DNA of 64,000 nt from Holophagales bacterium (lineage in GTDB: Bacteria > Acidobacteriota > Thermoanaerobaculia > Multivoradales > UBA5704): NCBI GenBank assembly GCA_031404815.1, contig JANNIH010000081.1:1972-65971 (forward strand), given 5' to 3'. Positions within the stretch are counted from its first letter, which is position 1; the number at the start of each line of letters is the position of its first letter. The notes beneath the pieces are model-generated. The model was given only the letters and a program-made list of their open reading frames with translations, ran no database searches and was not told the DNA's origin. A program made the translations under genes and the position numbers. Positions 5,537 through 64,000 of the stretch are shown in pieces.

Positions 5537-6256
5537 TCAGACCGACCCGCCCAAAACCAGCACGAACTCACCTTTGAGGCTCGGCCGGGCGGTAAAGACG
5601 ACCAGCAGGTGAGAGAGCGGCCCGCGCACGATCTCCTCGTGGAGTTTGGTCAGCTCCCGGCCGATCGCGGCGGGGCGGTCGCCCAGCTCGGCATGCGCGT
5701 CGGCGAGCGAAGCGAGCAGGCGATGCGGCGATTCGAACAGGATGACTGTGTGACCGAGCGCGCCCATCTCGCGGTAGAAGGTGCGGCGCTTGCCCGAACG
5801 AAACGGTGGAAAGCCGGCGAACGTGAACGGGTACGGGGGGAGAGCCGAAGCGACCAACGCCGCAAGGATCGCGGAGGCCCCGGGGATCGGCTCGATCCTG
5901 GCGCCGCGGGCCGCCGCTTCTCGGACGAGCAGAAAGCCGGGGTCGGAGAGGAGCGGGGTGCCCGCGTCGCTCGCCACCGCCACCGTGGATCCCCGTTCCA
6001 GCTCGGCGAGCAGGCGCGGCAGGCGCTGCCGTTCGTTGTGCTCGTGCAAGGAGACCAGCGGTTTGCGAATGCCGAGATGGGCGAGCAGCTTGCCGGTCTG
6101 CCGGGTGTCCTCGCAGGCGATCAGGTCCGCGCGTTCGAACGCCTCGCGGGCGCGCGCCGAAAGATCTCCGAGGTTGCCGATCGGGGTCGAAACCAGCAGC
6201 AGCCGACCGGGATACGGCGCATCGGGCGCGCGGGAAGTGTCCGCAGGGGAAGACAT
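5537..6256 (-). CDS. rsmI: 16S rRNA (cytidine1402-2'-O)-methyltransferase
   Basis: 'LVSTPIGNLGDLS.RA', 'ACEDTRQT', 'SDAGTPLLSDPG', 'FESPHR', 'RELTKLHEE'. Start chosen at ATG 6256. Confidence 0.93.
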   Translation of the reverse strand: MSSPADTSRAPDAPYPGRLLLVSTPIGNLGDLSARAREAFERADLIACEDTRQTGKLLAHLGIRKPLVSLHEHNERQRLPRLLAELERGSTVAVASDAGTPLLSDPGFLLVREAAARGARIEPIPGASAILAALVASALPPYPFTFAGFPPFRSGKRRTFYREMGALGHTVILFESPHRLLASLADAHAELGDRPAAIGRELTKLHEEIVRGPLSHLLVVFTARPSLKGEFVLVLGGSV

Positions 6257-6282
6257 CGTGGCGGATGCTAGCATCCGCTGCG

Positions 6283-7002
6283 ATGGCATCGACGATCGCG
6301 CGCACTCTCGCCGGATTTCTCCTCGCGGCTTTGCCGGCAGCCGGATTCGGTGCGGCGGTCGGCCCGGTCGCCCGGCTGCTCGATCGGGTGGTCGCGGTGG
6401 TCGACGAAGATCCGATCCTCGCCTCCGACCTAGAGCGGGTGATCGGCCTCGGACTGGTCACCGCCCGAGCGGGCGAAAGCGCCGACTCGCTCCGCCGCAG
6501 GGTACTCGATCAGCTGATCGAGCAAAGGCTGCGCTCACACGAGATCGACCGTTCGGGGTTTGTCGAGGTCCCGGTCGAAGAGATCGAGCTTCAGATCGGC
6601 GAGATCCGCGCCCGCTTTCCCGACGAGGCGGCGTTTTCGCTTCGGCTGACCGAGTTGGGGATGACCCGGGCGACTCTCGCGCAGTTGGTCGCGCGCCAGA
6701 TCGCGGTGTTGGTCTACATCGACGAGCGCTTGGGACCGCGGGTGTTCGTGAGCCTCGACGACATTCGGGATTACTACCTTGCGACCCTCACCCCCGAGCT
6801 CGAGAAGCGCGGCGAGAAGGTACCGCCGCTCGACGATGTGCGAGAGCAGATCCGGGCGGTCCTGCGCGAACAGCGCTTGAACGTCGAGCTGGCCCGCTGG
6901 TCCGAAGAGCTCCGACGCAATTTCGATGTCGAGAGCTTCTACGACGAACCGGTCGACCGTCTGCCGCCGCTCCTGCGCACGATCGAAACGCCGCCCGGCT
7001 GA
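6283..7002 (+). CDS. SurA N-terminal-domain chaperone-like protein
   Basis: Signal peptide, then 'LDRVVAVVDEDPILASDL' and 'RRRVLDQLIEQRL'; no PPIase domain visible. Confidence 0.72.
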   Translation: MASTIARTLAGFLLAALPAAGFGAAVGPVARLLDRVVAVVDEDPILASDLERVIGLGLVTARAGESADSLRRRVLDQLIEQRLRSHEIDRSGFVEVPVEEIELQIGEIRARFPDEAAFSLRLTELGMTRATLAQLVARQIAVLVYIDERLGPRVFVSLDDIRDYYLATLTPELEKRGEKVPPLDDVREQIRAVLREQRLNVELARWSEELRRNFDVESFYDEPVDRLPPLLRTIETPPG

Positions 7003-7021
7003 GCGCGACCGCTTCGTCCGC

Positions 7022-9289
7022 TCAAGGGCGGACGCCGACGCTGTAGACCTCTCGGTAGTGGGCCCAGGAGGCGACCACTGCGGCGAGGTAGGCCCGAGCG
7101 GCGGGATCGGTGATCTTGGTCCAGTACTCCTCCGGTTCGGAGGTCGCGCAGTACCCTTGCCAGATCCGCGCCGCTTCCGAACCGGCTTCGAGCGCGGTGA
7201 TCGCCCGATGAACGGAGCCGCGGGCGACCCCCAACTCGGCCCCCAGCTCCGCGGCGACCAAGGGGATCGCGACCTCGGGACGTTCCAGATCGTCTGCGGT
7301 CGGGCCGGGCAACCCGGCTTGGGCTGCGACTCGAACCTGCCGGGCGAGCAGCGAACCGGCAAGGCCGCGCCCGGCGCCGCGCACCAGGCTGGGATCGAAT
7401 CGGCTCTCCTCGCGCAAGATCGCCGCGAGCAGCAGCGGATCGACGCCACGCCGCGGCCCTTCGCGACGCAACAGATCGGCGTACGGAAAGGGATAGAGCA
7501 GACGGCGCAGAGCGAGGGGCAGGAGCGGCTCGGGAAGATTAATGGGTACCCTTGCGCGCACCCCTTCGGCCAGCGCGATCGAACGGCGCGTATGCCCGAC
7601 CCTGGCGAGTTCCTGAGCGGCGGTGAACGCCAAATCCGGGTCGTTCGGTGGAAAGAGGTCCGGGGCCGCAACGCCGCCATCGGTCCAAATCCCTAAGCCG
7701 AGGAGCATCACCTCGGCGCGGAAGCGCCCATGGGTCGAGGCCGGGCTCCAGACCGGCCAGCGCTCGACCGGCACCCGAGTCAACCTCAGAAACGGCGCCG
7801 CCTCTCGGTCGGCGAGCAGGACTTTGGCCAGCCGCCCCCGAGCGGAGCGGCCGAGCGGATTTCTGTCGCCCAAAATCAGCCAAGCTCCCAGCAAGTCGGC
7901 CGGCTTTCCCGTTTCGGCCATCCGTTGGGCGAGAATCGTCGCCGTGGGCGCGAGGCCCGGTCCCGCCAAGCGGCGGCGGGCGCCTTCCGCGAGCAGGTGG
8001 TACGGGTCGATCCGGAGCACCTCCAAATAGGCGTTCACTTTGGCCTGCGGGCTGCCCGAGAGCTCGATAGACCGCGCGCGCCAGTAGGCGAATTCGATCG
8101 GTTCGCCGACCGCACCCGGTCCGCCCAGCCAAGCGCGAGCCCGGTCGCCGCGGCCGCGGACGAGATCCGACGCCGCGAGAAACAACGCCGCCCGAGCGGC
8201 TTCGCCGCGCCAAGCGGGGCGTGCGGCGAGGCGCGCGAGCAGGTTGCCCGCGGTCGCCTCGTCGCCGGATCGCGCCGCGAGCCGGAGCGCCGCAGCGTAG
8301 GCCGCAGCCGTCTGCGCTCCGTCCGGATCGGCGGCCGCCGCCGCGAGATAGCGCCCCATCGCCATCTGCGCCTGACCGCGCGCTTCGAAGCCACGCCCTT
8401 GATCGAAGCGCGCCTCTGCGCGGGACGAAGCGCCGCCCGCCTGATGCGCCGCGATTTCGAGCTGGGCGATCGCCGGGTCGTATTGCCCGGCCTGGAGCTG
8501 AACCCTTCCGAGCGAGACCGCCGCCGCCGACTGGTCGCGGCGCGAAGCCGAGAACCCGGCGCGGCGCAACGAGAGGATCGCCCGCTCGAACTCTCCGCCC
8601 AACGCGAGCACCAGGCCGGAAAGGAGCGCGGAGCGCCCGCGGGGAGCGGCTTGGATTTCGCCGAGATCGGCGAGGCGCTGGGCCGCAGCGAACGCCCAGT
8701 CGTCGATCGTCGACTCATCGAGAAGATCGACCAGAAGGCTGCGGCCGAGTTCGGTATCTCCCGCGCGGAAGGCACAATCGGCGCGGGCGAGCTGGAGCGC
8801 CCGCCGCTCGGGCGGCGCGAAGGCGAGGAGCGTGATCGCCTTGAGCAATCGACAGTCGCCCCCTTGCTCCAAGCTGCGCTGGAACAGCCGGACCGCTCTC
8901 TGAGCCAGGGGCGATCGGGCTTCCTGTGCGGCCACCGCGGCGAGCAAGCCGGCGGCCACCTCCGGATGCCCCGCACGCATTTGGCCGAGCGCGAGCCGAT
9001 ACCGACCATATGCGGCGAGCGCAGGGGCCTCGATCATCGCCGCCGCGAACGCTTCCCCGGCACGCCGCTCATCGCCCAGTCCTTCGAGCAGATGGCCGCG
9101 AAGATAGGAGAGGCCGAGTTCGCGCGCGAGCGGTGGCCGGCTCGCGAGCTCGCGATCGACCCGGGTCAAGGCGTCGCGATCCCGCCCGACCCGCTGCAGC
9201 TCGACCAACTGCGGTCGGGGATCCGGACCAGCCGAACCACCCGACAGGGCCAATGCGAAAGTGGCAACGAAGAAAGGCGCGTTCAGCAT
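7022..9289 (-). CDS. TPR-rich soluble lytic transglycosylase-like protein (degenerate SLT motifs)
   Basis: Signal peptide, long helical repeat region, and 'LLYPFPY...VDPLLLAAILREESRFDP' at the start of the SLT domain. Confidence 0.75.
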   Translation of the reverse strand: MLNAPFFVATFALALSGGSAGPDPRPQLVELQRVGRDRDALTRVDRELASRPPLARELGLSYLRGHLLEGLGDERRAGEAFAAAMIEAPALAAYGRYRLALGQMRAGHPEVAAGLLAAVAAQEARSPLAQRAVRLFQRSLEQGGDCRLLKAITLLAFAPPERRALQLARADCAFRAGDTELGRSLLVDLLDESTIDDWAFAAAQRLADLGEIQAAPRGRSALLSGLVLALGGEFERAILSLRRAGFSASRRDQSAAAVSLGRVQLQAGQYDPAIAQLEIAAHQAGGASSRAEARFDQGRGFEARGQAQMAMGRYLAAAAADPDGAQTAAAYAAALRLAARSGDEATAGNLLARLAARPAWRGEAARAALFLAASDLVRGRGDRARAWLGGPGAVGEPIEFAYWRARSIELSGSPQAKVNAYLEVLRIDPYHLLAEGARRRLAGPGLAPTATILAQRMAETGKPADLLGAWLILGDRNPLGRSARGRLAKVLLADREAAPFLRLTRVPVERWPVWSPASTHGRFRAEVMLLGLGIWTDGGVAAPDLFPPNDPDLAFTAAQELARVGHTRRSIALAEGVRARVPINLPEPLLPLALRRLLYPFPYADLLRREGPRRGVDPLLLAAILREESRFDPSLVRGAGRGLAGSLLARQVRVAAQAGLPGPTADDLERPEVAIPLVAAELGAELGVARGSVHRAITALEAGSEAARIWQGYCATSEPEEYWTKITDPAARAYLAAVVASWAHYREVYSVGVRP

Positions 9290-16410: not shown

Positions 16411-17499
16411 TCAGACCGCGGGCTTGAGTGTCCCGATGACGATCTTGTCGTCGATCACCAGGCTGTGGTGGTTGCCTGTCTTCTCGACTTCCGGTTGACC
16501 GAAGGGGTCGAACTCGTACGGTTTGATCACCCGGCCGAACACCGATTTGAGCGCGCGGGCGCCGATTCGGCTGCTCTTTGAAGCCTCCTCGGCGATCTTC
16601 TGGATCGCCGGCTCGGTCACGGAGAGCTCGATGCCCATCTTGCGGAAGAAGTTCTGGGAGATCTGGAGCACCCCTTCGGCCGGCTCGCGGAAAATTCGCG
16701 CGAGGGTGCCGGGAGTCAGGTCCTCGAGGATCACCGCGTTGTCGAAGCGGGAGAGGAACTGCGGCTGCATGCCGTACTCGAACAGATCTTCCTGCCGGAA
16801 ATGATGGCGCAGGGTGAAGTACTCACGGATTTGGATCTTGCCGTTCTCGTAAATCGTCGTGGTCGGCAGTTTGATCCCGCTCTTGGGCGAGATCACACGC
16901 TGGAACACCTGGTCGTAGAGGGTCTCGAACGCTCCGGCGCAGAGGAAGAGCATCTTGCCGGTATCGAGCCAGACGGTGCTCGACTCGGGCACTTTGTCGC
17001 GCACCACGGTGATCTTATGGCTGACCCGCTCGCCCTCGATCAGGGTGAGCAGCGCCTGCTGGATGTTGATTCCGGTCACATACGGCTTGCCGCCGACGAC
17101 TCCGGAGACCTTGTCGATCTCGTCCAGGCAGACCGTGGCACGCTCCATCGCCCGGCCGATCTCTTCGGCCGTGGCATTGGCCCCGAGCACTTGGCGGGTC
17201 CGCTCCTCCAGGCGATGAAACAGACGGGAGGTGTCGATCGCGCCATCTTCGGCCGCGATCGTGCTCGCGTTCATGATCAGCACCACCCGGTACTCGACGA
17301 ACTCCTCGTGCTCGGCGTAGAGCGACTCGATGCCGCGCATGATCGTGGTCTTGCCGGTGCCGGAGTTGCCGATCAGCAACAGGTTGCCGTACTTCTCACC
17401 TTCCAGATGCTTGAAGATCGCGACCGCGACGAACCGCAGGGTCTCGTCCTGGCCGATGACGCGCTGGGATAGGAACTCGTGAATTTCGACGGGCTTCAT
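16411..17499 (-). CDS. ClpX-like AAA+ ATPase lacking the zinc-binding domain
   Basis: 'L...VIGQD', Walker A GNSGTGKT, Walker B CLDEIDK, 'QQALLTLIEG', 'GARAL'. Confidence 0.8.
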   Translation of the reverse strand: MKPVEIHEFLSQRVIGQDETLRFVAVAIFKHLEGEKYGNLLLIGNSGTGKTTIMRGIESLYAEHEEFVEYRVVLIMNASTIAAEDGAIDTSRLFHRLEERTRQVLGANATAEEIGRAMERATVCLDEIDKVSGVVGGKPYVTGINIQQALLTLIEGERVSHKITVVRDKVPESSTVWLDTGKMLFLCAGAFETLYDQVFQRVISPKSGIKLPTTTIYENGKIQIREYFTLRHHFRQEDLFEYGMQPQFLSRFDNAVILEDLTPGTLARIFREPAEGVLQISQNFFRKMGIELSVTEPAIQKIAEEASKSSRIGARALKSVFGRVIKPYEFDPFGQPEVEKTGNHHSLVIDDKIVIGTLKPAV

Positions 17500-50577: not shown

Positions 50578-53298
50578 ATGCGCCGCTACGTATCGATCGC
50601 GTTGCTCCTGTTCGCGGCGAGCGTCCAGGCCCAGGCGTTAACGCCTTACCTGATTCGCGACCTGAACACCGGAACGGTGGGAATCGGCTCGTCACCGAAG
50701 ATCCTCGCGAGCCTGGGCGAGCGCGCCCTGGTCCTGCTGGATCAAGGCCGGGACCTCTGGTCGAGCGACGGCACTCCGGAAGGAACGACCCTCCTGGTCC
50801 GGAGCGAGGGCTTCGTCGAGTTCGCCGTCGTCTTTCCCGGACAGCGCCTCGCCTACCTGATCGAGCAGCGATCGGACAGCCGTCGCTATTGGGCGACCGA
50901 CGGTACCGCGGCCGGCACCTATCCGCTCACCGCGGATTTTCTCCAGGCCCCTCCTCCCACCTGGCAGGGCCAGTTTCTGCGCGTCGCCGGAACCGATCGC
51001 ATTTTCTTCTCCGCCGGAACGCCACAGCGAGGAACCGAGCTCTGGACCAGCGACTCCACGGCCGCGGGAACGCGCCAGATCGCGGATCTGCTGCCCGGAG
51101 CGGGAGGCTCCGAGCCGCACCAGTTGACGTCTTTCCGGGGCAAAGTCTTCTTCGCCGCCGATGACGGCCGCGGCATTTCCCTCTGGTCCACCGATGGCAC
51201 GGCCAACGGCACCCGCCTGATTCTGGATCCCGACCCACGCCGCCGCCAGAGGTTCAGTCCCCAATCGTTCCAGGTGGTCGGCCAGAGCCTCTTTTTCCTC
51301 GTCCCGACCGCCAACGGCTGGTTCCTCTGGAAGAGCGACGGCACCGCGAGCGGCACCCGCTCGATCGCGAAGATCGCGCCGTACCGGCCAGGGCGGGATT
51401 ACAGCATTCAGACGATCGCCCACCTGGACCGCCTCTTTCTGCTGTTCGACGACGGGAGCAACGGCCGCGAAATCTGGACCTCGAACGGCACCGCCGCAGG
51501 CACGCGGCGGATCACCGATTTCCAGGGTGTCAACGATTCGCCCCTGTCGTTTTCGCCGTACCAACTCCCGGGGCGCCTTCTCTTCAACGCGAACGATAGC
51601 GTGCACGGCACGGAGCTCTGGACCTCGAACGGCTCTCCCGGGGGAGCCCGGTTGCTCAAGGACGTCTGCCCGGAGGGGTGCAGTGGAGTGAACACCCCGC
51701 CTCGGCTCGCCTTCGGTGGCCGCCTCTATTTCACCGCCTTCACCCGCGCGCGCGGCCTGGAGCTCTGGAGCACCGACGGGACCGAGGCGGGAACGCGCCT
51801 GTTCAAAGACTTTTGCCGGGGAACCTGCGGTAGCGACCCCCGCCTTCTCGGCGGCCCGGACGGCCGGTTCTACGTCACAGCCGGGACCGCCCTCGGCAAC
51901 AGCCGGCTTTGGCGTTCCAACGGTACCTCCGCGGGCACGGTCCCGGTCACTGACGACTCGTTTTATAGCGGCGGCGACCGCGGCGTGGCCGTCGGTCGAT
52001 ATTTCCTGTTCAACGGCGAAGACGCGACCCACGGCAGCGAGCTGTGGCGCACCGAAGGAACGATCGCTACCACCCGGCTCGTCGCCGATTTCACGGCCAA
52101 CGAGCCCGGCAGCTCTTCGCCCAGAGAGTTTCACCCCACCGGTTCGCGCGCCGTCTTCCTCGCGAACGACGGCCTCAGCCCCATCGGCATCTGGTCGAGC
52201 GACGGCACCGCCGAGGGTACGCGGCTGCTGCTCGACGGGGGGTTCGAGCCCCCGCTGCTGCAATTCGCCAAGAGCGGGGAAAACCTTACCTACTTCTACA
52301 CCAGTAACTTCAGGGCTCTGTGGCGAACCGACGGCACGCCGCTGGGAACGTTTCAGGTCTCGCCGCCCGAGCTGGATTTCTACCAATCGGGAAGCACGCT
52401 GGCGATGCTTGGCGACCGGGCGTTTTTCGTCGGGCTGGACGCGGCGCATGGCGAGGAGCTTTGGACCAGCGACGGCACCGTCGCGGGAACCCATCTCGTG
52501 GCCGAGGCCCGGCCGGGGGCCGACAGCTCGCGTGCGCGCCAGCCGCGGCCCTTTTTGGGCAAAATCCTCTTCGAGGCCACCGACGAGATTTTCAACGACC
52601 AGCTCTACGTGACCGATGGAACCGCACCGGGCACGAAGAAGCTGGGCGAAGCCTATCCGTTCCTCGCCGACGTATTCAGCTTTTCTTTGGCCGGCACCAA
52701 GGTGTTTTACCCGCGGCCCGACCCAGAGGATCTCAATGAGTTTTGGGCGACCGACGGGACGGTCTCCGGCACGGCCCGGTTGTTCGATTCGAGCGTCCAG
52801 GTCTTCCGAAATTACCCGGCCGGCAACCGCCTTCTGTTCGAGACCTTCGGATCGACCTACCTCGGCCTGTATGTCAGCGACGGGACCGCCGCCGGTACCC
52901 GTAAAATCGCGGACGATCTGACCCTCGCCTACCCTCCGACCCATTTCGACCCGGCCGCGTTCGGCAACCTCATCGCGTTCGCCGCCTTTCGAGGGTCCGA
53001 CCCTTCGACCACCGCCCTTTGGGTCACCGACGGCACGGCCGCGGGAACCCGCAGCATTCTCTCGCAGGAGGGCGGTTTGCCGTTTCCGTGGCGCGCGACC
53101 CCCTACCTCGGCGGCCTGTTACTCGCGGGCGGTCCGAACCTCTGGTTCACCGACGGCACCGCGGAAGGTACGGCAGTCGTCCTCTCGGCCGCACCCGGAG
53201 TCGATGCGCCCCTCCCCGTAACCGCCGGAGACCGCGCCTATTTTTCGTGGGCCGATCTGGAAACCGGCTTGGAACCCTGGGCTCTACGGCCGGATTGA
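50578..53298 (+). CDS. Secreted ELWxxDGT-repeat protein (probable beta-propeller)
   Basis: Signal peptide; about 18 (E)LWxxDGTxxGT repeats; ends 'GLEPWAL'. Confidence 0.88.
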   Translation: MRRYVSIALLLFAASVQAQALTPYLIRDLNTGTVGIGSSPKILASLGERALVLLDQGRDLWSSDGTPEGTTLLVRSEGFVEFAVVFPGQRLAYLIEQRSDSRRYWATDGTAAGTYPLTADFLQAPPPTWQGQFLRVAGTDRIFFSAGTPQRGTELWTSDSTAAGTRQIADLLPGAGGSEPHQLTSFRGKVFFAADDGRGISLWSTDGTANGTRLILDPDPRRRQRFSPQSFQVVGQSLFFLVPTANGWFLWKSDGTASGTRSIAKIAPYRPGRDYSIQTIAHLDRLFLLFDDGSNGREIWTSNGTAAGTRRITDFQGVNDSPLSFSPYQLPGRLLFNANDSVHGTELWTSNGSPGGARLLKDVCPEGCSGVNTPPRLAFGGRLYFTAFTRARGLELWSTDGTEAGTRLFKDFCRGTCGSDPRLLGGPDGRFYVTAGTALGNSRLWRSNGTSAGTVPVTDDSFYSGGDRGVAVGRYFLFNGEDATHGSELWRTEGTIATTRLVADFTANEPGSSSPREFHPTGSRAVFLANDGLSPIGIWSSDGTAEGTRLLLDGGFEPPLLQFAKSGENLTYFYTSNFRALWRTDGTPLGTFQVSPPELDFYQSGSTLAMLGDRAFFVGLDAAHGEELWTSDGTVAGTHLVAEARPGADSSRARQPRPFLGKILFEATDEIFNDQLYVTDGTAPGTKKLGEAYPFLADVFSFSLAGTKVFYPRPDPEDLNEFWATDGTVSGTARLFDSSVQVFRNYPAGNRLLFETFGSTYLGLYVSDGTAAGTRKIADDLTLAYPPTHFDPAAFGNLIAFAAFRGSDPSTTALWVTDGTAAGTRSILSQEGGLPFPWRATPYLGGLLLAGGPNLWFTDGTAEGTAVVLSAAPGVDAPLPVTAGDRAYFSWADLETGLEPWALRPD

Positions 53299-53842: not shown

Positions 53843-54066
53843 AACGCGCTCTTGGCTCTACCCGCCGTCGCCGTAGCATCGGCACTGGTGGCCGCCCATA
53901 ATTACGCGGCCGAAAACCAGCCCCGCCTGCGGGCGAAGACGATCTCGACGCGGGTGATCTATCTGGATTACGATGGCGGGAGGCAAGGCGGACTTGGAGC
54001 CCGGGGCCAAGTTTCACCTGATTCGGAAGCAGGGGCAAAGAGGCTGGGAAATTCGGTGAGTTGGCT

Positions 54067-54297
54067 CCCGAATTCCATTTCGGGACTCCCGAATTCCATT
54101 TTTTGAGTCCCGAATTCCATTTTTTGAGTCCCGAATTCCATTTCGGGACTGCCGAATTCGAATTCGGGACTGCCGAATTCCATTTTCCGGACCGCGAATT
54201 CCATTTCGGGACTCCCGAATTCCATTTCTTTGGCCCCGAATTCCATTTCGGCGCCCGCGAAATCGATTTCGGCGGTCCCGAATTCGATTTCGCGGCC
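54067..54297. repeat. Tandem array of 11 x 21-bp imperfect repeats, consensus CCCGAATTCCATTTCGGGACT
   Basis: Units start at 54067, 54088, 54109, 54130, 54151, 54172, 54193, 54214, 54235, 54256 and 54277; 11 GAATTC sites; the consensus has a CCCGAA-N6-TTCGGG inverted repeat. Confidence 0.95.
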
Positions 54298-54318
54298 CGA
54301 TCGCATCGGGGGATGACC

Positions 54319-55542
54319 GTGAAAATCCTGATCGTCGTCTCACGCTCGCCCTATCCGCCGCGGCGCGGGGATCAGATGCGGGCGGTTCAGACGCTCGAGG
54401 TCCTCGGGACGACGCACGAAATCACCCTGCTCGCACCTACCGATACCAACGCGCCAACCCGTCTCGGTTCAGGCATCCGGCTTCTGACCTACCGGCCGCC
54501 GGGCCGGTTTGCCAAGATCCTGGGCGTCGGCCGCGCGGCGCTCTCGGGCCAGCCGCTCCAATCGGGGCTGTTCCGAAGCGGCGATCTGGCGAGCAAGCTC
54601 CGAGCGCTCGCACCCCGGCACGATCTTGTCCTCCTTCAGCTCGAGCGGCTGGTTGGGCTCCTCCCCGACCTCGGAGAGACACGTCTGGTCGTCGATCTGA
54701 TCGACAGCCTGGCGCTCAACTTCGAGCGGCGGGCCGAATTCGATGCCTTGCTGTTGCGCCCTGCCCTCCGCTTCGAGGCCGCCCGCCTGCTCGCCGCCGA
54801 GCGGCAGCTGGCCCGGCGCGCCTCGAAAATCTTGGTCGTTTCCGAACGGGATCGCCGCTACCTCGAAGAGCGCCTCGGCCCGGAGCTCGCCGACAAGGTC
54901 GAAGTCGTGCCGCTCGGAGTGTCGATCCCCGAAGAGCTGCCGCCGACGCTCAAGCTCTGGAAGAGGCCGGCCGGCGGAGCGACCGAAGAATCGACGTTCG
55001 AGGTTGCCGCCGACGCCCGTCGCCCGCTGCTCGCGATCACCGGCAACCTCGGCTATTTCCCGACCATCGACGGTTCGCTCTGGTTTCTCGGCGAGGTCTG
55101 GCCGAAGCTGCACGCGGCGCGCCCCGAGGTTCGGTTGCTCTTCGCCGGAGCCCGCCCCCCGGCTCGCCTGCGCGCCGCGATCTCCCGTGCGGGAGCCGAA
55201 TTGATCGAATCGCCGACGGACCTTCGCGCGATTCTTGGGCACGCGACACTCGCAATCGCACCGATGCGCGCTGGCTCGGGCCTGCCGATAAAGATCCTCG
55301 AAGCCTGGTCCGCGGGCGTTCCGGTGCTCACGACTCCTTGGACTGCGGCGGGAGTCTCGGGCCGGGCCGGGGAGGATCTCGCCGTGGTCGAGCCCGATCC
55401 GGCCGCCTGGTGCAGAGAGATTCGCCGCTTGCTCGACGACCCGGCCGCGCGGCAGCGTCTGGTCGAAAACGCCCGACAGAGACTCGCGGCGGACTTCTGC
55501 AAAGAGAGCGTGGCGGCTCGTTGGCGCGCGGCGATCGGGTAA
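54319..55542 (+). CDS. GT4 glycosyltransferase
   Basis: GTG start 'MKILIVVSRSPYPPRRGD' after a G-rich SD; 'GSGLPIKILEA'; alternative ATG at 54313. Confidence 0.85.
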   Translation: MKILIVVSRSPYPPRRGDQMRAVQTLEVLGTTHEITLLAPTDTNAPTRLGSGIRLLTYRPPGRFAKILGVGRAALSGQPLQSGLFRSGDLASKLRALAPRHDLVLLQLERLVGLLPDLGETRLVVDLIDSLALNFERRAEFDALLLRPALRFEAARLLAAERQLARRASKILVVSERDRRYLEERLGPELADKVEVVPLGVSIPEELPPTLKLWKRPAGGATEESTFEVAADARRPLLAITGNLGYFPTIDGSLWFLGEVWPKLHAARPEVRLLFAGARPPARLRAAISRAGAELIESPTDLRAILGHATLAIAPMRAGSGLPIKILEAWSAGVPVLTTPWTAAGVSGRAGEDLAVVEPDPAAWCREIRRLLDDPAARQRLVENARQRLAADFCKESVAARWRAAIG

Positions 55543-55560: not shown

Positions 55561-56211
55561 ATGGAACGGACACGCCGCCCGCTCACCGCCGGAGAAGAAA
55601 TCGCCAACAGCGTCACCCACGGGATCGGGCTGATCTTGAGTCTGATCGGCTTTCCCCTTCTGTTGTTCGCCGCCTCGGGGCGCCAGGACCCCTGGCAGCT
55701 CGTGGGCTATGGGGTGTTTGCGACCACCTTGGTCTTCCTCTACGGGATTTCGACGCTCTACCACGCGGCCAAACCCGGCCGGGCGAAGCAGATCCTCCGG
55801 GTGCTCGACCATTCCGCGATTTATCTCTTGATCGCCGGGACCTACACCCCGTTCACCCTCGGCGTGCTCCGCGGCGCCTGGGGTTGGACGCTGCTTGGGC
55901 TGATTTGGGGGCTCGCGGTGTTCGGCATCCTGTTCAAGAGCCTGATCGGCGTCCGGCTGCCGCGCGCCTCGGTCGTTCTCTACATCCTGATGGGCTGGCT
56001 GGTGGTGATCGCGATCCGCCCCTTGGCCGCCCAGCATGATGGCGCGGCGCTCCGTTGGCTGCTCGCGGGCGGCATTCTTTACACCGCCGGAGTCGTGTTC
56101 TACACCTGGGAGCGCCTGCACTACCATCACATGTTCTGGCACCTGTTCGTGCTCGGCGGCAGCATCTGCCACTTCCTCGCCGTGCTCTGGTACGCCGCCC
56201 CCGCGGTCTGA
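55561..56211 (+). CDS. Hemolysin III / PAQR family membrane protein
   Basis: '[10 protein letters not shown]', 'STLYH', '[17 protein letters not shown]', '[11 protein letters not shown]'. Confidence 0.92.
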
Positions 56212-58410: not shown

Positions 58411-58438
58411 ACGGCCGGCCCTTTGCGGGGCCGGCCGT
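58411..58438. terminator. Probably bidirectional intrinsic terminator between convergent genes
   Basis: 11-bp stem ACGGCCGGCCC / GGGCCGGCCGT with a 6-nt loop; T-rich run after it on + and an A-run before it. Confidence 0.8.
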
Positions 58439-58464: not shown

Positions 58465-59091
58465 CTAGAAGTGGGCGCGCAGACCGAGGTAAACCTTGGT
58501 CTGCAGGCTGTCCTCCGCATCCTGGACCAGGTCGAAACGGCCGGCGCCGAAAGCGCTCAGGTGCTCGCCGAGGAAGAGATCGACCCCGAACTGGGCGTTG
58601 ACTCCGACTTTGTTCTTCGTTCCGGTTTCGTCCGGATTGTCCTTGAGCAGCGCCGCGTCGATCTGGTGGAGGGCGGCGCCGGCCCCGAAGAACGTCTCGA
58701 CATTGCCGAACGGCACCACGCCGATCAAATTGGCGCCGATCGACAGGTCGCTCGCCTTCTCGCCGCCGCGCGCCTCGGAGGTCTCCCAGTAGGCGACCTC
58801 GGGCTCGATGTAACCACGAATCCCGCGATCGACCGAACCGTAGTCCTCCTCGTTCTTGTGACCCGCACGAATGCGTAACGAGACGGTCAGATACGGCTCG
58901 GTGATACCGCTGTTCGAGGGCTCGATCAGACCGATGCCGACACCCAGGGCGAACCGATTCTCTTCTTTGTAATCCGCGTAGGGATCCCGATTCGGATCGC
59001 CATCCCGACTCTGCGGATCTTGAGCCCGCGCTACGGCCGCGGGCAACATCAGGGCCGCCCCTACGGCTACCACGGTGAGCCAATGTTTCAT
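58465..59091 (-). CDS. Outer-membrane beta-barrel protein (8-strand type)
   Basis: AGGAGG SD; signal peptide; alternating beta-strand pattern; C-terminal Phe ('YLGLRAHF'). Confidence 0.75.
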   Translation of the reverse strand: MKHWLTVVAVGAALMLPAAVARAQDPQSRDGDPNRDPYADYKEENRFALGVGIGLIEPSNSGITEPYLTVSLRIRAGHKNEEDYGSVDRGIRGYIEPEVAYWETSEARGGEKASDLSIGANLIGVVPFGNVETFFGAGAALHQIDAALLKDNPDETGTKNKVGVNAQFGVDLFLGEHLSAFGAGRFDLVQDAEDSLQTKVYLGLRAHF

Positions 59092-59216: not shown

Positions 59217-59669
59217 TCAGGACCTGGCTTGCGGGGGTTCGAGAGGCGCGAAGAGATCACCGATCCCGGACACCTCGCCGAGAGGCACGCCGAGGTACTC
59301 GATCCAGGCGTGCGCGACCAGGCTCTCTCCCTCTTTGCGCACGCCGAAGCGGAGTTCGGTTAGGACCCCTTCCTCGGCCAGAAACGAGCGGAGGGCGAGC
59401 GCCCGAGGTACACAGTGCATGGGGTAGAGATGATGGCGGGCGGCGATGTCGACCGCGCGGACCCAAGGTGCGATCGAACTCTCACCGCCGGCCCCAGGCT
59501 CCGGCTTTCGACGGTCGAGGGAGGCGGCCACACGGGCGAAGCCCTGGGCACGCACCCGGAGATCGAGCGCGAGGAGACGGAGGGCGGCACGGATCAATCG
59601 CCGCCGATCCAGCGCAGAAAAAGCGCGCAGTCGGCGCAGGTTAGACCACCGAAAGGTTCGCGGAGACAT
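59217..59669 (-). CDS. Lasso peptide leader peptidase (B2, transglutaminase-like)
   Basis: 'HCVPRALAL' catalytic Cys, 'FGVRK', 'AHAWIE'. Confidence 0.9.
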   Translation of the reverse strand: MSPRTFRWSNLRRLRAFSALDRRRLIRAALRLLALDLRVRAQGFARVAASLDRRKPEPGAGGESSIAPWVRAVDIAARHHLYPMHCVPRALALRSFLAEEGVLTELRFGVRKEGESLVAHAWIEYLGVPLGEVSGIGDLFAPLEPPQARS

Positions 59670-59952
59670 CGATCAATCCGTGCCGCACGAGCTCGTGGAG
59701 CAGGCGGTCGAGATCAGCGGTCACCGTCTCGCGGTCGATTTCGAACTCAGCCAACAGGCGATCTCGAACATCGCCGAGCACCGCTCCTCCGACGAGAAGC
59801 GCCCAGGCGCGGGTTCCGACTTCGTTCAGACCGTAGTAGGTGCCCAACTCGACATTGAGAATGACCATCTCGCCACCGACCTCGCGGGCGAGGACGCCTT
59901 CTCGGGGGCGGACAATGCTGGTGGGCGAGTACTCCAAAGTCGAAATGGTCAT
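59641..59952 (-). CDS. PqqD-family RiPP recognition element (lasso B1)
   Basis: 'EVGGEMVILNVELGTYYGLNEVGTRAWALL...DLDRLLHEL..HGLI'. Confidence 0.9.
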   Translation of the reverse strand: MTISTLEYSPTSIVRPREGVLAREVGGEMVILNVELGTYYGLNEVGTRAWALLVGGAVLGDVRDRLLAEFEIDRETVTADLDRLLHELVRHGLIDVSANLSVV

Positions 59953-59969
59953 GAATTTTCAAGAAGTTA

Positions 59970-60917
59970 TCACAGGGTCGCGAGGCGTTCGAGGATCGCC
60001 TCGCGCACCTCTGGCAGATGCTCGAGGCCGTTCGGATAGACCAGACGAAAGACAGGAACCCGCTCGGCAACCGCAACCAACCGCTCGAAACGTCGGGCGA
60101 CGCCGATCGCCGCTTCGCCGAGCGCGCCGAGGAAGGAGTGGCGTACCAGCTCGATCGTGGCTTCGCGCGGCGTGAGGCGAGTGATCTCAATGTTTGAGCC
60201 CTCCCGGACGGGCAAGAACAACGCGCCGAGCTCGGCCGCGGAATCATGGAAGGCGCCGAGGCCGTTCCCGCCAACGGGGACGCGCAGCTTGTCGAAATCG
60301 GGATGCACCGGCTCGAGCTGGTGAGCATTCTCGACGAATTCTTCAGCCGCGCTTGGCCAGAGCCGCATCTGCGGAAAGCTGGGCTGCGCAAGAACACCGC
60401 CGGTCCCGTCGATGTCGACGGCAAGAACGTCGTCGGTGAGCAACAGGAAGCCAGCGTCCAGGAAGCAGGCCGCGAGACTACTCTTGCCGGCCCGGTTAAA
60501 TCCAAGGAAGCCAACGGCTCCCCCAGGAAGGACTACCGCAGAGCCATGCAAGCAGGTCGCACCGGCCTGTTCGAGCCAGAGCGTCGAGACCAAACCGAGG
60601 AAAAAGATCTCCGCTTCGCCGACTGTGCCACCCTTGAGCTGGTAGTAAATGCCTCCCGCGGCGACATCGAAGCAGGCCACGCCTTTTAGCTGCAGGCGCA
60701 CGTAATTGCCGCGTCGGAATGCACGGAGCCAGGGCTCTTCTTCTAGGAGTCCACTGCTCTGATAGATCTGAACTCCGTTCCCTTCGTCGATAGCTTCAAT
60801 GGTACGGAGTGAGAGGACCGGCTCGCCTCCAACCTCGTGCAGTCGTCCGGCGAGCGCCAGTTCAGACTCGAGAATCCGGCCGTACCAGCGGTAGCGGGGG
60901 AGTGTCGGCGAGTTCAT
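59970..60917 (-). CDS. HPr-kinase-like lasso peptide kinase
   Basis: 'LHGSAV', Walker A GFNRAGKS, 'LLTDD'; ATG overlaps the cyclase TGA. Confidence 0.85.
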   Translation of the reverse strand: MNSPTLPRYRWYGRILESELALAGRLHEVGGEPVLSLRTIEAIDEGNGVQIYQSSGLLEEEPWLRAFRRGNYVRLQLKGVACFDVAAGGIYYQLKGGTVGEAEIFFLGLVSTLWLEQAGATCLHGSAVVLPGGAVGFLGFNRAGKSSLAACFLDAGFLLLTDDVLAVDIDGTGGVLAQPSFPQMRLWPSAAEEFVENAHQLEPVHPDFDKLRVPVGGNGLGAFHDSAAELGALFLPVREGSNIEITRLTPREATIELVRHSFLGALGEAAIGVARRFERLVAVAERVPVFRLVYPNGLEHLPEVREAILERLATL

Positions 60918-62596
60918 GGCTCGAAACGACGGAGCCAAGCCTCAAGCGACAGGCTGTGCCAGAAATCCGTGTTTGCCCTGCGGCCGGAAAGGTAGTCGTC
61001 GACAGCTCGCCGGAGGCTGCTCGGCTCAAGGTACCCTAGTTCTGCTGCGCGCATATCACGAAGAAGCGTCTCGATGTTCGCCCGCTTCACTCGAAGTGCG
61101 CGGTCGAAGAGAGCGGTCGGATAGATCTTGCGGGGACGGTCGAGGATCTCATCGGGAAGGAAGCCACGCATTGCCTGGCGAACGATTGCTTTGGAGAAGC
61201 CATCGGCAAAACTTAAAGTCGCAGGGAAGCTGTACGCGAGATCGATGATTCTGGAATCCAGGTACGGGTGGCGGAGATCGATCCCGAACCTGGCTGCCTC
61301 GGCGGTCATAAGAGCCGTCGTTCCGCGGTGTTGTGAATCGAGAAGGAGTCGTCGATCGTGATCTCCCGGCAAAGCGAACCGGTCTCCCTTCGGAAAGCGC
61401 GGTACGAGTCCACGCAGAGCGGGACTCAGCCATGGGGGAGGCAGCGGTCCATGGAGCGGCAAAAGCCAGCGCGCAGTGCGGCCAAGAATACGGTAGCGAA
61501 TCAGCCAAGGGAGGTCGACATCGACCCTGCGACGATATGCCTTTATTTCCTGAGCTAGCTTGAGCCAACGAAAAGTAAGAAACAAATCGGCGAACGGAAA
61601 TACGGTGCCAAAGGCTAAGTCCCCTCCGTGCCCGGTGAACAGAGTTCCTATTCCTTGCGCACAAGCTTGGATGAATGTCTCTTGCCAGACCTCTCGGTAA
61701 ACGTTGCAAGCCGGGTTTGCGGAATCGGGAGCGAGGCCTCCAGAAGCAGAGAGCGGGTGATGGACATCGGCCGCGATCTCAACGACCTCCATCCCGAGCG
61801 CTCGTGCAACCCGCATTGCAGGCCCGCTCTCGTCTGCATCCGGTGCCGTACGGGCGGCCCAGACAAAGGCAACCATCCCCGCCTCGGGGAGGGCGACGCG
61901 AAGCGCGGCCGCGATCGAGGTCGAATCGAGCCCGCTGCTCAGCGTAATGCCGATTCTTTCGCCTGGTGGAGCGTATTCAGGAACGACAGAGAAGAGCGTC
62001 TTGCGCAACACGGTCGACGCCTCGATCGCACTGCGCGCAGGAAGAAGATGGCGGTGCTGTTGCCGGGATAGGCGAAGCTTGATGCTCCCTCGGTTGATCG
62101 TAAGCGTTGCCCCTGGAGGGAGCACTCGAATACCTCGGAAGAACGTCGTTCCCGGCTCGGGCGTGACGCCACAGATGTGTGCTGCAACCGACGCCGGCTC
62201 GATTCGATCGAAGTTGGCTGTTGCGAAGCACTCCATTCGACTCGATATGACGATCTCGCGGCCGTGCTCGGAGAAAAAAAGTGGGTGTGCCCCCGTTGGA
62301 TCGGCTACCGCAAGGAGCTGCTCCTTTCGGCCATCCCAGATGACAAAGGAGCACGGCCCAGAGATACGATCTGGCAGCTCCATGCCATAGCGGTCATAGC
62401 CGGCTTCCAGGAGAATCTCGATACGGCTGGCAAGTGATGTCTGCCCCTGAGACACAATTTCGCTAGAACAGAGAATGAATCCACCCCACATCAGGCAGAC
62501 TGGCTTGTCGCCGCTCGGAGCGAGGTCCGGTGCGAGGAGATCTCGGCTCCAACGGACGAGTTTCTGCGGCTGAGAGTCAGTGCTCTCCTGTGCCAC
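60914..62596 (-). CDS. Lasso peptide cyclase (asparagine-synthetase-like, no N-terminal Cys)
   Basis: PP-loop 'LSSGLDST', 'FTGHGGD', 'HPYLDSR', 'RPRK'. Start uncertain (GTG 62596, ATG 62650 or ATG 62491). Confidence 0.85.
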   Translation of the reverse strand: MAQESTDSQPQKLVRWSRDLLAPDLAPSGDKPVCLMWGGFILCSSEIVSQGQTSLASRIEILLEAGYDRYGMELPDRISGPCSFVIWDGRKEQLLAVADPTGAHPLFFSEHGREIVISSRMECFATANFDRIEPASVAAHICGVTPEPGTTFFRGIRVLPPGATLTINRGSIKLRLSRQQHRHLLPARSAIEASTVLRKTLFSVVPEYAPPGERIGITLSSGLDSTSIAAALRVALPEAGMVAFVWAARTAPDADESGPAMRVARALGMEVVEIAADVHHPLSASGGLAPDSANPACNVYREVWQETFIQACAQGIGTLFTGHGGDLAFGTVFPFADLFLTFRWLKLAQEIKAYRRRVDVDLPWLIRYRILGRTARWLLPLHGPLPPPWLSPALRGLVPRFPKGDRFALPGDHDRRLLLDSQHRGTTALMTAEAARFGIDLRHPYLDSRIIDLAYSFPATLSFADGFSKAIVRQAMRGFLPDEILDRPRKIYPTALFDRALRVKRANIETLLRDMRAAELGYLEPSSLRRAVDDYLSGRRANTDFWHSLSLEAWLRRFEP

Positions 62597-62768
62597 CCGG
62601 CAAACGCCTTTTCTCAGGGCCCTGATTTTCGCGCGAGCCATCGACGCCATCCGAAGGCCCGAAGTTACCCTCGCGCGTCAGGTCGGACAGCCGTCCATAA
62701 ATCGAGAGCTTTGGCGGGACATATCTCTCACGCAAATCTCCATTCCGGACTGAGCATTTATATCGCAT
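62577..62768 (-). CDS. Lasso peptide precursor (63 aa)
   Basis: MRYKCSVRNGDLRERYVPPKLSIYGRLSDLTR-EGNFGPSDGVDGSRENQGPEKRRLPGGTGEH. Has the YxxPxL leader motif, 'G..xxLT' with Thr at -2, and Asp at core position 8; directly upstream of the cyclase. Confidence 0.78.
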   Translation of the reverse strand: MRYKCSVRNGDLRERYVPPKLSIYGRLSDLTREGNFGPSDGVDGSRENQGPEKRRLPGGTGEH

Positions 62769-62869: not shown

Positions 62870-62898
62870 AAAAAAAAGGCCCGGGGTTCCCCCGGGCC
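62870..62898 (-). terminator. Rho-independent terminator of the upstream secreted-protein gene
   Basis: 9-bp GC stem (62878-62886 / 62890-62898) with a 3-nt loop, followed by T8 on the minus strand. Confidence 0.88.
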
Positions 62899-62949
62899 CA
62901 AAGTCATTGATCAAGAGAGGCTGGCGAAGTGCCAGCCTCTGAAGTGCAA

Positions 62950-63999
62950 CTAGTTACGGTGCGGAGCGCACAGCAACCCGTTGTTGTAGTTGTCCAACAT
63001 CGTGTGCCACGGCGAGGCCGTGGTCCAGGCCGAGCTGCTACCGCGGACGTTGCTGCCGACCGGATAGGTCTTCAGCCAGTTGTCGGCCGAGGTGATGGTC
63101 GCGCTGATGCAGCTGGAGGCATTGCCGACGATGACGTTCAGCTTGGCCGCGATCAGCTGCTTGGCCAAATCGATCGTCTTGTCGCCCCGGCTCGAAGTGC
63201 CGAGCAGCGTGATCGCCTGAGCGACCGTGTAGGTCTGGTTGCCGATCTTGATGCTGGTGACCGGCCAGGCGCTCGCGTGATTTTTCCAGTAACCGATCGT
63301 GGCGGTGCCCGGAGCCGGAGTCGTCGGCGGGCACTGGACGATATCGACGTTGATGTCGCCCTGTCCGGTGGCCGGGAAGCAGGCACCTGAATTGGGCTGC
63401 GTGACCACCGTCCATCGGTACCAACCGGAGGCCCCGAAGTTGAGGTTCTTACCGTTGGCGCCGACTCCGACCTGGAACGCCGGGCCGGTGCGGGTGATGC
63501 TGATGGCGCCGCCGACGTTGTTGTCGATACCGGTCAGGGTGCCGTTATACCCGGTGTAGTAGAACCAGGTCCCGGTGTTGACCGGTCCACCGTTCTCCGA
63601 GTACGCCGAAGCCATGAGCTCTTTCTTCGGGCTGCCGGCGGGAGCGACGCTCGTCCGGCCGGTGAACGTGATGCTCACCACCCAGGCGTTCAGTGGGTTG
63701 GACAAGCTGCGCAACGTCCCGTTCATGTTCGCCGTGCCGTTCGAATTCTGCATGAACGTACCCGGGGACGGAGTGAACTGGTAATCGGTACCGATGCCCG
63801 GGAGCCAGAAGGCATGATTGGCTCCAGCGCCCTGAACCGACGGGTCGTTGATCGCTTCGTCCACACACTGCTCGTTGTTGCTCGGAGTGCGGTAGCCGAA
63901 GTCGACATCGAGCTTCGCCTGACCGCCCGCGAGCGAGAGCGCCACGGTGTTCGCGGTGCCGATCCCATCGAGGTCGTAGGTCTGCACATTTCCGGCCGG
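62950..63999 (-). CDS. Large secreted protein (SdrD-B-like repeat end plus 'IGYWKNH' C-terminal domain), 5'-truncated by window edge
   Basis: Frame is open to the window end; 'YDLDGIGTAN...DVDFGY' and 'TIGYWKNH..AWP...QLIAAKLN'. Confidence 0.7.
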   Translation of the reverse strand, partial: PAGNVQTYDLDGIGTANTVALSLAGGQAKLDVDFGYRTPSNNEQCVDEAINDPSVQGAGANHAFWLPGIGTDYQFTPSPGTFMQNSNGTANMNGTLRSLSNPLNAWVVSITFTGRTSVAPAGSPKKELMASAYSENGGPVNTGTWFYYTGYNGTLTGIDNNVGGAISITRTGPAFQVGVGANGKNLNFGASGWYRWTVVTQPNSGACFPATGQGDINVDIVQCPPTTPAPGTATIGYWKNHASAWPVTSIKIGNQTYTVAQAITLLGTSSRGDKTIDLAKQLIAAKLNVIVGNASSCISATITSADNWLKTYPVGSNVRGSSSAWTTASPWHTMLDNYNNGLLCAPHRN

Positions 64000-64000
64000 A

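Follow-up and report, generated by a model that had tools for sequence, protein, structure and literature searches.

The described systems closest to the locus reported here are lasso peptide clusters that include a kinase. The Firmicute examples are paeninodin (Paenibacillus dendritiformis) and the ThcoK, BaceK, PapoK and PsmK systems, which share with our locus a cyclase, an HPr-kinase homologue and split B1 and B2 proteins; the kinases of the paeninodin group carry a His-Lys-Asp-Asp catalytic motif and use the linear precursor as substrate. A proteobacterial polyphosphorylated lasso peptide is made by SyanA/SyanK of Sphingobium yanoikuyae ATCC 51230 (Zhu et al. 2016, via PMC8498205 and PMC9266682). 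Every lasso kinase whose characterisation predates 2023 acts on a C-terminal Ser, a residue described as extremely conserved in kinase-linked precursors. A precedent for a phosphosite away from the C-terminus, and for a kinase stimulated by B1, is the bsf cluster of Bradymonas sediminis, in which BsfK targets Ser3, a ring residue of BsfA (PMC10368454). Kinase-containing lasso clusters in Acidobacteria have already been noted in silico (PMC10368454; PMC9064862), and we found no report in the literature of a lasso peptide isolated from Acidobacteriota. Here we analyse a cluster of this kind in a 64,000-nucleotide stretch of a Holophagales bacterium assembly (contig JANNIH010000081.1); the whole of this stretch is referred to as the window. 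The region is very probably an intact operon, vertically inherited at a fixed locus next to groESL in Thermoanaerobaculia (Acidobacteriota), from which a class II lasso peptide would be made and then tailored by an HPr-kinase-like enzyme. Its genes, with the evidence for each in brackets (ORF, open reading frame; RiPP, peptide made by the ribosome and modified after translation), are:

62577..62768, minus strand: precursor A, 63 residues (NF033521; conserved position in related loci)
60914..62596, minus strand: lasso cyclase C, 560 residues (PF00733, PF13537; the ORF, 60914-62650, reaches up to an ATG at 62650)
59970..60917, minus strand: HPr-kinase-like peptide kinase K, 315 residues (family profile, AlphaFold2 model, motif; ORF 59970-60938)
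59641..59952, minus strand: B1, PqqD-type RiPP recognition element, 103 residues (PF05402)
59217..59669, minus strand: B2, transglutaminase-like leader peptidase, 150 residues (PF13471, NF033537)

As judged from its sequence, the cluster encodes the components by which a lasso locus is defined at the gene level, namely a precursor, a PqqD-like B1, a transglutaminase-like B2 and an Asn-synthetase-like C. The precursor scored 19.8 bits with NF033521 (lasso_leader_L3; cut-off 19). C matched PF00733 (E = 3e-32, 113 bits, cut-off 21) and PF13537 (E = 3e-9) and carries the PP-loop SSGLDS at residues 220-225; its best NCBIfam models are those of lasso or macrolactam cyclases (NF033535, 144.6 vs 525 bits; NF033561, 127.5 vs 300 bits). 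B1 matched the PqqD family PF05402 (E = 8.9e-17, 61.6 bits, cut-off 23.4), and its best NCBIfam models are the lasso PqqD chaperones NF033536 and NF033530, with 53.6 bits against an 'exception' cut-off of 80. B2 matched PF13471 (E = 1.5e-18, 67.2 bits) and NF033537 (lasso_biosyn_B2; 57.5 bits, cut-off 33). Its candidate catalytic residues are Cys86 in HCVPRA and His120 in AHAWIE, motifs that we compared with the B2 sequences in Data Sheet 3 of PMC10368454. The initial annotation had proposed a kinase-containing lasso cluster in the order A-C-K-B1-B2, with split B1/B2, at these minus-strand positions, and had named PF00733, PF05402 and PF13471 as checks for the cyclase, the recognition element and the protease; all three models pass, and the proposal holds by ORFs and hidden Markov models (HMMs), together with the family profile and structure model described below for K.

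The genes are tightly packed, again as first described. With C starting at GTG 62596, A and C overlap by 20 nt; K starts on the stop codon of C in an ATGA overlap that is conserved in relatives; a gap of 17 nt separates K from B1, and the B1 and B2 genes share 29 nt. Gene A has an AGGA 8 nt upstream of its ATG. The homologues of C are 532-559 residues long, and N-terminal alignment with the orthologues of two related loci, L001 and L003, leads to GTG 62596, which is probably the start of the 560-residue protein. For K, ATG 60917 gives 315 residues, the same length as the database copy P0001, and is probably the true start. All five ORFs are intact and full-length in comparison with their homologues. 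A search of the whole window for a second precursor found none, apart from one chance match at 16503 that has no lasso context.

Precursor A consists of a 32-residue leader, MRYKCSVRNGDLRERYVPPKLSIYGRLSDLTR, and a predicted 31-residue core, EGNFGPSDGVDGSRENQGPEKRRLPGGTGEH. Cleavage between Arg and Glu, and with it this core, was predicted because Tyr, Pro, Leu and Thr of the leader then sit in the published recognition register, as Tyr-17, Pro-14, Leu-12 and Thr-2 counted back from the cut. Asp8 is the sole acidic residue at core positions 7-9, so a Glu1-Asp8 ring is predicted. The YxxPxL leader motif, Thr at -2 and Asp8 in the core are the features expected of a lasso precursor. Homologous precursors with equal leader length and the same style of C-terminus occupy the same position in L001, L003, L005, L007, L008, L009 and L011, and the pattern Y-x-x-P-x-L-x3-G-x5-L-T-x is common to all orthologous precursors of the sister loci. 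The closest orthologous cores (SDNGDGED..., SENGDGED..., EDSGDGAD...) have Asp or Glu at position 8, and a slightly more distant core, AAGNFGNPD..., aligns residue for residue with one additional N-terminal residue. The window core ends in ...GTGEH, the last residue being His, and no hydroxyl residues are present in it other than Ser7, Ser13 and Thr28. The product would be a lasso peptide of class II with an 8-residue ring and a 23-residue threaded tail, for which we calculated monoisotopic masses of 3217.49 Da for the unmodified form and 3297.45 Da for the singly phosphorylated one.

Several observations weigh against this reading of the region. Glu, which is Ser in orthologues, is an unusual first core residue: in the 40 characterised precursors that we parsed, core position 1 is G, A, C, S, L or W, and Glu in none. 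Gly is the commonest of these (27/40), and seven-residue rings are known, as would suit a leader cut one residue later, after Glu, with a core GNFGPSD... and a Gly1-Asp7 ring. Such a cut is improbable, however, since it moves Thr to -3 and Tyr/Pro/Leu to -18/-15/-13, out of the canonical register, and since the same shift in the orthologues makes residue 1 Asp or Glu, so that the acidic N-terminus of this subgroup remains. Also on the negative side, the lasso-specific NCBIfam models for C and B1 did not reach their cut-offs; K passed neither of the curated Pfam and NCBIfam cut-offs (PF07475, 12.7 bits, cut-off 33.3, E = 0.09; TIGR04352, 17.2 bits, cut-off 200, E = 0.002); no ATP-binding cassette (ABC) transporter is encoded in or beside the cluster; the 20-nt A/C overlap was not seen in relatives; and reported attempts at heterologous expression failed for three lasso clusters of acidobacterial origin found in soil metagenomes, biosynthetic gene clusters 40.1, 482.1 and 44.1 (PMC9064862). 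The unusual overlap, the resistance of acidobacterial lasso clusters to expression and a simple σ70-type scan in which no promoter was found, a result that says little for this phylum, would fit a cluster that is silent or decaying, or a K that is a non-catalytic scaffold. We consider this very improbable, given five intact ORFs that are full-length relative to their homologues, the fact that K, B2 and C have their catalytic residues, and visible purifying selection at the active sites of the family.

To call K HPr-kinase-like, a family profile and a structure model were needed, because single-sequence HMMs fall short. The homologues of K were likewise sub-threshold on HPr-kinase family models (E = 4e-6 to 0.07), PF27840 is annotated on a few homologues, a single-sequence search of the genome contigs with K gave no matches, and single-sequence phmmer of K against the PDB returned YheS matches only, which we discarded as Walker-A noise. 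A profile of 34 K homologues matched the HPr(Ser) kinases 3tqf (4e-5) and 1jb1 and 1ko7 (2e-3), followed by ATP-dependent phosphoenolpyruvate carboxykinases (PEPCKs), and all those matches span the His...GxGKS...DD segment of K. The AlphaFold2 model of K, built from the 34-sequence alignment, had a mean predicted local distance difference test (pLDDT) score of 93.9 and a predicted template modelling score (pTM) of 0.91. The top 50 Foldseek matches of this model were all PEPCKs, the best being ATP-dependent ones (E down to 5e-8, template modelling score ~0.5), and no HPr kinase chain was among these 50. The catalytic domain of HPr kinase belongs to the same P-loop fold class as PEPCK.

The residues of the catalytic motif in K are His124, Gly139, Gly144-Lys145-Ser146 and Asp162-Asp163. 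In the 34-homologue alignment His124, Gly144, Lys145, Asp162 and Asp163 are invariant, and Ser146 is present in at least 90%. Their spacing, H-x14-G-x4-G-K-S-x15-D-D, is identical to that of H148, G163, G168, K169, S170, D186 and D187 of BsfK, residues whose importance was shown by mutagenesis (PMC10368454). The sole difference within the motif is an Arg in K in place of BsfK G166, and a G166A mutant of BsfK was reported as fully active (PMC10368454). K is 28-33% identical over ~200 residues to the translated kinase genes of Bradymonadales bsf-like loci (E = 3e-12), and its gene is embedded in the lasso operon between C and B1. From profile, model and motif we conclude that K is a lasso-type HPr-kinase homologue that stands outside the curated HPr-kinase HMM families. 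The HPr-kinase-like assignment of the initial annotation thus stands on these three lines of evidence, and fails on the single-sequence models PF07475 (12.7 vs 33.3 bits) and TIGR04352; an HPr kinase HMM had been among the checks it proposed.

The kinase family is large, with 31,269 clusters at 50% identity for E<=1e-3, 17,505 for E<=1e-10 and 4,500 for E<=1e-30, and it ranges over Acidobacteriota, Chloroflexota, Gemmatimonadota, Actinomycetota, cyanobacteria and even metagenome-assembled genomes (MAGs) of methanogens. We fetched 86 loci via the kinase and clustered the ORFs of the 82 non-duplicate ones together with the window. The cyclase family was found in 59 of these loci, the B1 family in 68 and the B2-containing family in 78, the last count being inflated by spurious overlapping ORFs. 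At L018, from the cyanobacterial isolate Nodosilinea sp. P-1105, a PRMT/PrmA-like methyltransferase gene (6007-7152) follows a homologous kinase-lasso cluster; its product may serve as a further tailoring enzyme in this part of the family.

Leader type and kinase motif place the system of this locus nearest to the SyanA/SyanK type among the characterised ones. SyanA has the same leader type, Y-x-x-P-x-L-x3-G-x5-L-T-x, with ...YESPELVELGSFESLTQ preceding the cut before Gly, and its system also has split B1/B2 and an HPr-kinase-like kinase. Over a catalytic segment of ~54 residues SyanK is ~50% identical to K, compared with ~37% for ThcoK, both values being hand counts from noisy optical character recognition of Fig. 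S10 in PMC10368454. Our comparison with characterised kinases was limited to this catalytic segment (SyanK, ThcoK) and to motif spacing (BsfK). A search of species-representative genomes with a back-translated SyanA pattern did not find the SyanK locus, and a search with BsfB2 led to relatives of B. sediminis alone (63% at most) and not to strain FA350. In SyanA, however, the ring is Gly1-Asp9, whereas Glu1-Asp8 is predicted here. The Firmicute precursors differ from that of the window in having a leader without the P(-14)/T(-2) register, and their systems have an invariant C-terminal Ser, an ABC transporter and in some cases a nucleotidyltransferase, none of which occurs in the window cluster. 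Genes for an ABC transporter and a nucleotidyltransferase likewise set the bsf cluster apart from the present one. The 'HPr-rel-A system' of NCBIfam is similar in that an HprK-related kinase A (TIGR04352) is paired with a PqqD-family chaperone (TIGR04353), to which K and B1 gave weak scores (E = 0.002 and E = 0.0099); at 17 vs 200 bits and 17 vs 35 bits of the equivalog cut-offs, the window proteins are not members.

If K is active, its site would differ from every characterised case, because the core has neither a C-terminal Ser nor Ser3. The C-terminal Ser of the paeninodin/SyanA type, which is the reported phosphosite of SyanA, is not found in the window core, which ends in His, and the features of the BsfA type (Ile or Val at -2, Ser or Thr at position 3; Ile and Ser in BsfA) are replaced by Thr at -2 and Asn at position 3. 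An analogy with paeninodin had been drawn for this cluster beforehand; it holds for the gene set, which corresponds to that of the phosphorylated lasso systems in the literature (PMC8498205, PMC9266682, PMC10368454), but not for the substrate. We therefore examined 61 distinct precursors adjoining homologues of K in related loci. Asp or Glu is present at core positions 7-9 in 58 of the 61, and a C-terminal Ser in only 6. Counting from the ring acid, Ser or Thr occurs at +4..+8 in 55/58 kinase-linked precursors vs 9/39 characterised kinase-less ones, and the Gly-Ser/Thr form in 46/58 vs 3/39; Fisher p is ~1e-13, with relatedness ignored. A Gly-Ser/Thr anywhere in the tail was observed in 50/61 precursors vs 27.8/61 in shuffled tails. 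The equivalent residue in the window is Ser13 (D8-G-V-D-G-S13-R), five residues past the ring acid, and the Ser of G-S-R/Q is the sole aligned hydroxyl in the nearest orthologous cores (L001, L003, L005, L007, L008, L009, L011). Because this position is conserved across the kinase-linked family, we predict Ser13 as the target of the kinase.

SyanA, whose leader is the most similar among characterised precursors, argues in the opposite direction. It has a Gly-Thr at +7, and despite this its reported phosphosite is the C-terminal Ser; the conserved Gly-Ser could therefore be structural. The same pathway would then operate with Gly-Ser as a structural feature of the loop and with ring Ser7 or Thr28, near the C-terminus, as the kinase target, as in BsfK, which acts on a ring residue (Ser3), or in ThcoK, PadeK and SyanK, which act at the extreme C-terminus. 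This deserves serious attention, but is on the unlikely side: both residues are unconserved in the closest orthologous cores, where position 7 is Glu in L003, L005 and L007 and the C-terminal regions vary, whereas the hydroxyl at +4..+8 is kept in nearly the whole family.

With Ser13 as the predicted site, the pathway can be outlined as follows. A is translated as a 63-residue precursor, as indicated by its ORF and conservation. K and ATP would phosphorylate a hydroxyl of the still-linear precursor, probably aided by B1 as for BsfK. B2 (Cys86/His120) would then cut after Arg-1, two residues past Thr-2, and C would adenylate Asp8 and join it to the alpha-amine of Glu1, giving the 8-residue ring and the 23-residue threaded tail. 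Export is left unexplained by this scheme, because the cluster is without an ABC transporter; an ABC family is present in 16 of the more distant loci.

The nearest loci are all from Thermoanaerobaculia MAGs, with GroEL 95-99% identical to that of the window, which agrees with the acidobacterial host assumed at the outset. In at least eight distinct sister genomes the order is shared: an SdrD_B-repeat gene, A, C, K, B1, B2, a gene for an outer-membrane-protein (OMP)-like product of 207-209 residues, and groEL and groES on the opposite strand. Each cluster gene has its closest relatives at this locus in the sister genomes. Protein identity to the window is 95-99% for GroEL, 84-88% for the C-terminus of the SdrD-like protein and 73-92% for the OMP-like protein, vs 52-71% for B2, 56-65% for K, 54-64% for B1 and 37-56% for C. 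At the DNA level (300-nt windows), identity to relatives is 0.80-0.97 in the flanks and 0.43-0.76 in the cluster, with steps at ~62950 and ~59200, and it is lowest across the precursor gene and the beginning of C; at the terminator upstream of the cluster it falls from ~0.86 to ~0.5. The cluster is an old resident of this fixed locus by groESL, vertically inherited and diverging quickly. The rapid divergence fits diversifying selection or an exchange of alleles between relatives, and either diversification in place or such exchange could be its cause.

The initial annotation had instead considered the cluster to be probably horizontally acquired, noting that it is less GC-rich than its flanks. 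The difference is real but modest: GC is 0.616 in the cluster and averages 0.665 over the window, with an sd of 0.025 among segments of the cluster's size, of which 3.3% are as low. At third codon positions (GC3) the cluster genes have 0.58-0.75 and their neighbours 0.79-0.91. Together with the abrupt fall of DNA identity at both borders, these values would suit a recent transfer. We nevertheless regard a recent acquisition as highly unlikely. The same genes, in the same order and at the same locus, are found in the sister genomes, which hold all the closest homologues; GC3 is equally lowered in the orthologous clusters of L001 and L003; a scan of the window found no tRNA and no Rfam element; and no flanking repeats of the cluster and no mobility gene (integrase, transposase) nearby were found. 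The sharp borders of identity are explicable, since allele exchange among close relatives is possible. The earlier claim of horizontal acquisition was accordingly dropped in favour of vertical inheritance.

The cluster was not always retained intact. In some other Thermoanaerobaculia B2 lies beyond groESL (L092, L096, L102), so that the lasso genes straddle the chaperonin operon, and in others (L097, L104, L106, L108, L112, L114, L117, L118) a B2-like gene alone is left next to groES. These arrangements suggest that the cluster has been rearranged and lost repeatedly around the chaperonin operon.

The following features adjoin the cluster:

62877..62899, minus strand: intrinsic terminator of the SdrD_B-repeat gene and upstream boundary of the cluster (GGGCCCGGGGGAACCCCGGGCC, then a T-run)
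58465..59091, minus strand: OMP-like gene, 208 residues, neighbour of the cluster (weak PF13505, signal peptide)
58411..58438, no strand: strong hairpin between the OMP-like gene and groEL (12-bp stem, 10 G-C pairs)

The strong upstream terminator, which had been described before, was confirmed at 62877-62899, with a 10 bp stem, 9 G-C pairs and T7-8. The hairpin at 58411..58438 lies between the convergent OMP-like gene and groEL and likely ends transcription from both sides.

The OMP-like protein has a weak match to PF13505 (E = 0.0017), a signal peptide and a C-terminus ...YLGLRAHF; in our scan the gene was restricted to Acidobacteriota. It was first a candidate member of the cluster and was demoted to a neighbour, as in 60 homologue loci it often stands by groEL without lasso genes. 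As an outer-membrane channel for exit or uptake it could take the place of the missing transporter, and several features suit such a role: it is co-directional, starts 125 nt past B2 with only a weak hairpin between, and lies behind the kinase in 23/50 related loci, even where the B1/B2 order is different (L013, L059, L064, L082). However, it adjoins groEL in at least 12 loci that have neither kinase nor cyclase close by, its more distant homologues stand alone, its identity among close relatives resembles that of the flanks and not that of the fast-evolving cluster, and it has a strong ribosome-binding site of its own (AGGAGG). It is thus quite unlikely to be part of the system, and we treat it as a neighbour.

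On the other side of the cluster, a giant SdrD_B-repeat protein is encoded on the minus strand at 62950-64000 and runs past the end of the window. Its C-terminal domain of ~130 residues contains Cys (..TIGYWKNH..LIAAKLN..YNNGLLCAP) and has no Pfam, NCBIfam or PADLOC match; the PADLOC defence-system models likewise gave nothing for K or for the OMP-like protein. In 27-30 related loci, L016, L017, L026, L027, L052, L055 and L057 among them, a gene for a protein with a homologous C-terminus lies just upstream of a kinase-lasso cluster; L027 is binned as Chloroflexota. The adjacency may reflect either a functional link or synteny that the loci share.

Beyond groES, a LanC-like gene follows a 59-residue ORF in a sister genome (L003/L004, 9911-10960) and may belong to a lanthipeptide cluster beside the lasso locus. 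At this position the window has HlyIII (55561-56211) and a glycosyltransferase gene, the same as L005. A glycosyltransferase-like ORF (54061-55542, plus strand) has at its 5' end a 21-bp tandem repeat (54065-54292; 10.9 copies, 81% matches) with the palindromic consensus CTCCCGAATTCCATTTCGGGA; the repeat lies in a GC dip (0.55-0.58) and in frame would encode PEFHFGT-type repeats. At 50578-53298 (plus strand) a secreted protein of 906 residues is encoded, with a signal peptide and many beta-propeller-like '...ELW(T/S)SDGT..GT' repeats.

The cluster itself would be expected by specialists, given the earlier in silico sightings and the size of the family. Of more note are the loop phosphosite and the Glu1 ring, both predicted, and the cassette-like way in which the cluster diverges while its locus stays fixed. 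We tentatively propose that this cluster and the large SyanK-like kinase family around it produce lasso peptides that carry phosphate on a conserved loop Gly-Ser just above the ring (Ser13 in the window core), a site undescribed in lasso peptides; that the window product would have the first isopeptide ring formed from an N-terminal Glu; and that a fast-diversifying cassette fixed beside groESL across Thermoanaerobaculia suggests a role in an ecological arms race. This combined proposal is possible, though still short of being the probable outcome. The precursor comparison yields a testable rule, namely that the conserved hydroxyl of the kinase-linked family is an internal Gly-Ser/Thr 4-8 residues past the ring acid and not a C-terminal Ser in the style of paeninodin. 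If the kinase does act at this residue, the phosphate would be carried by the loop, the part of the lasso usually engaged in target recognition, and the range of sites accessible to RiPP kinases for engineering would be wider. A diverged cluster between conserved flanks also offers a natural series of precursor, cyclase and kinase variants at one locus, which could be used for the study of their co-evolution.

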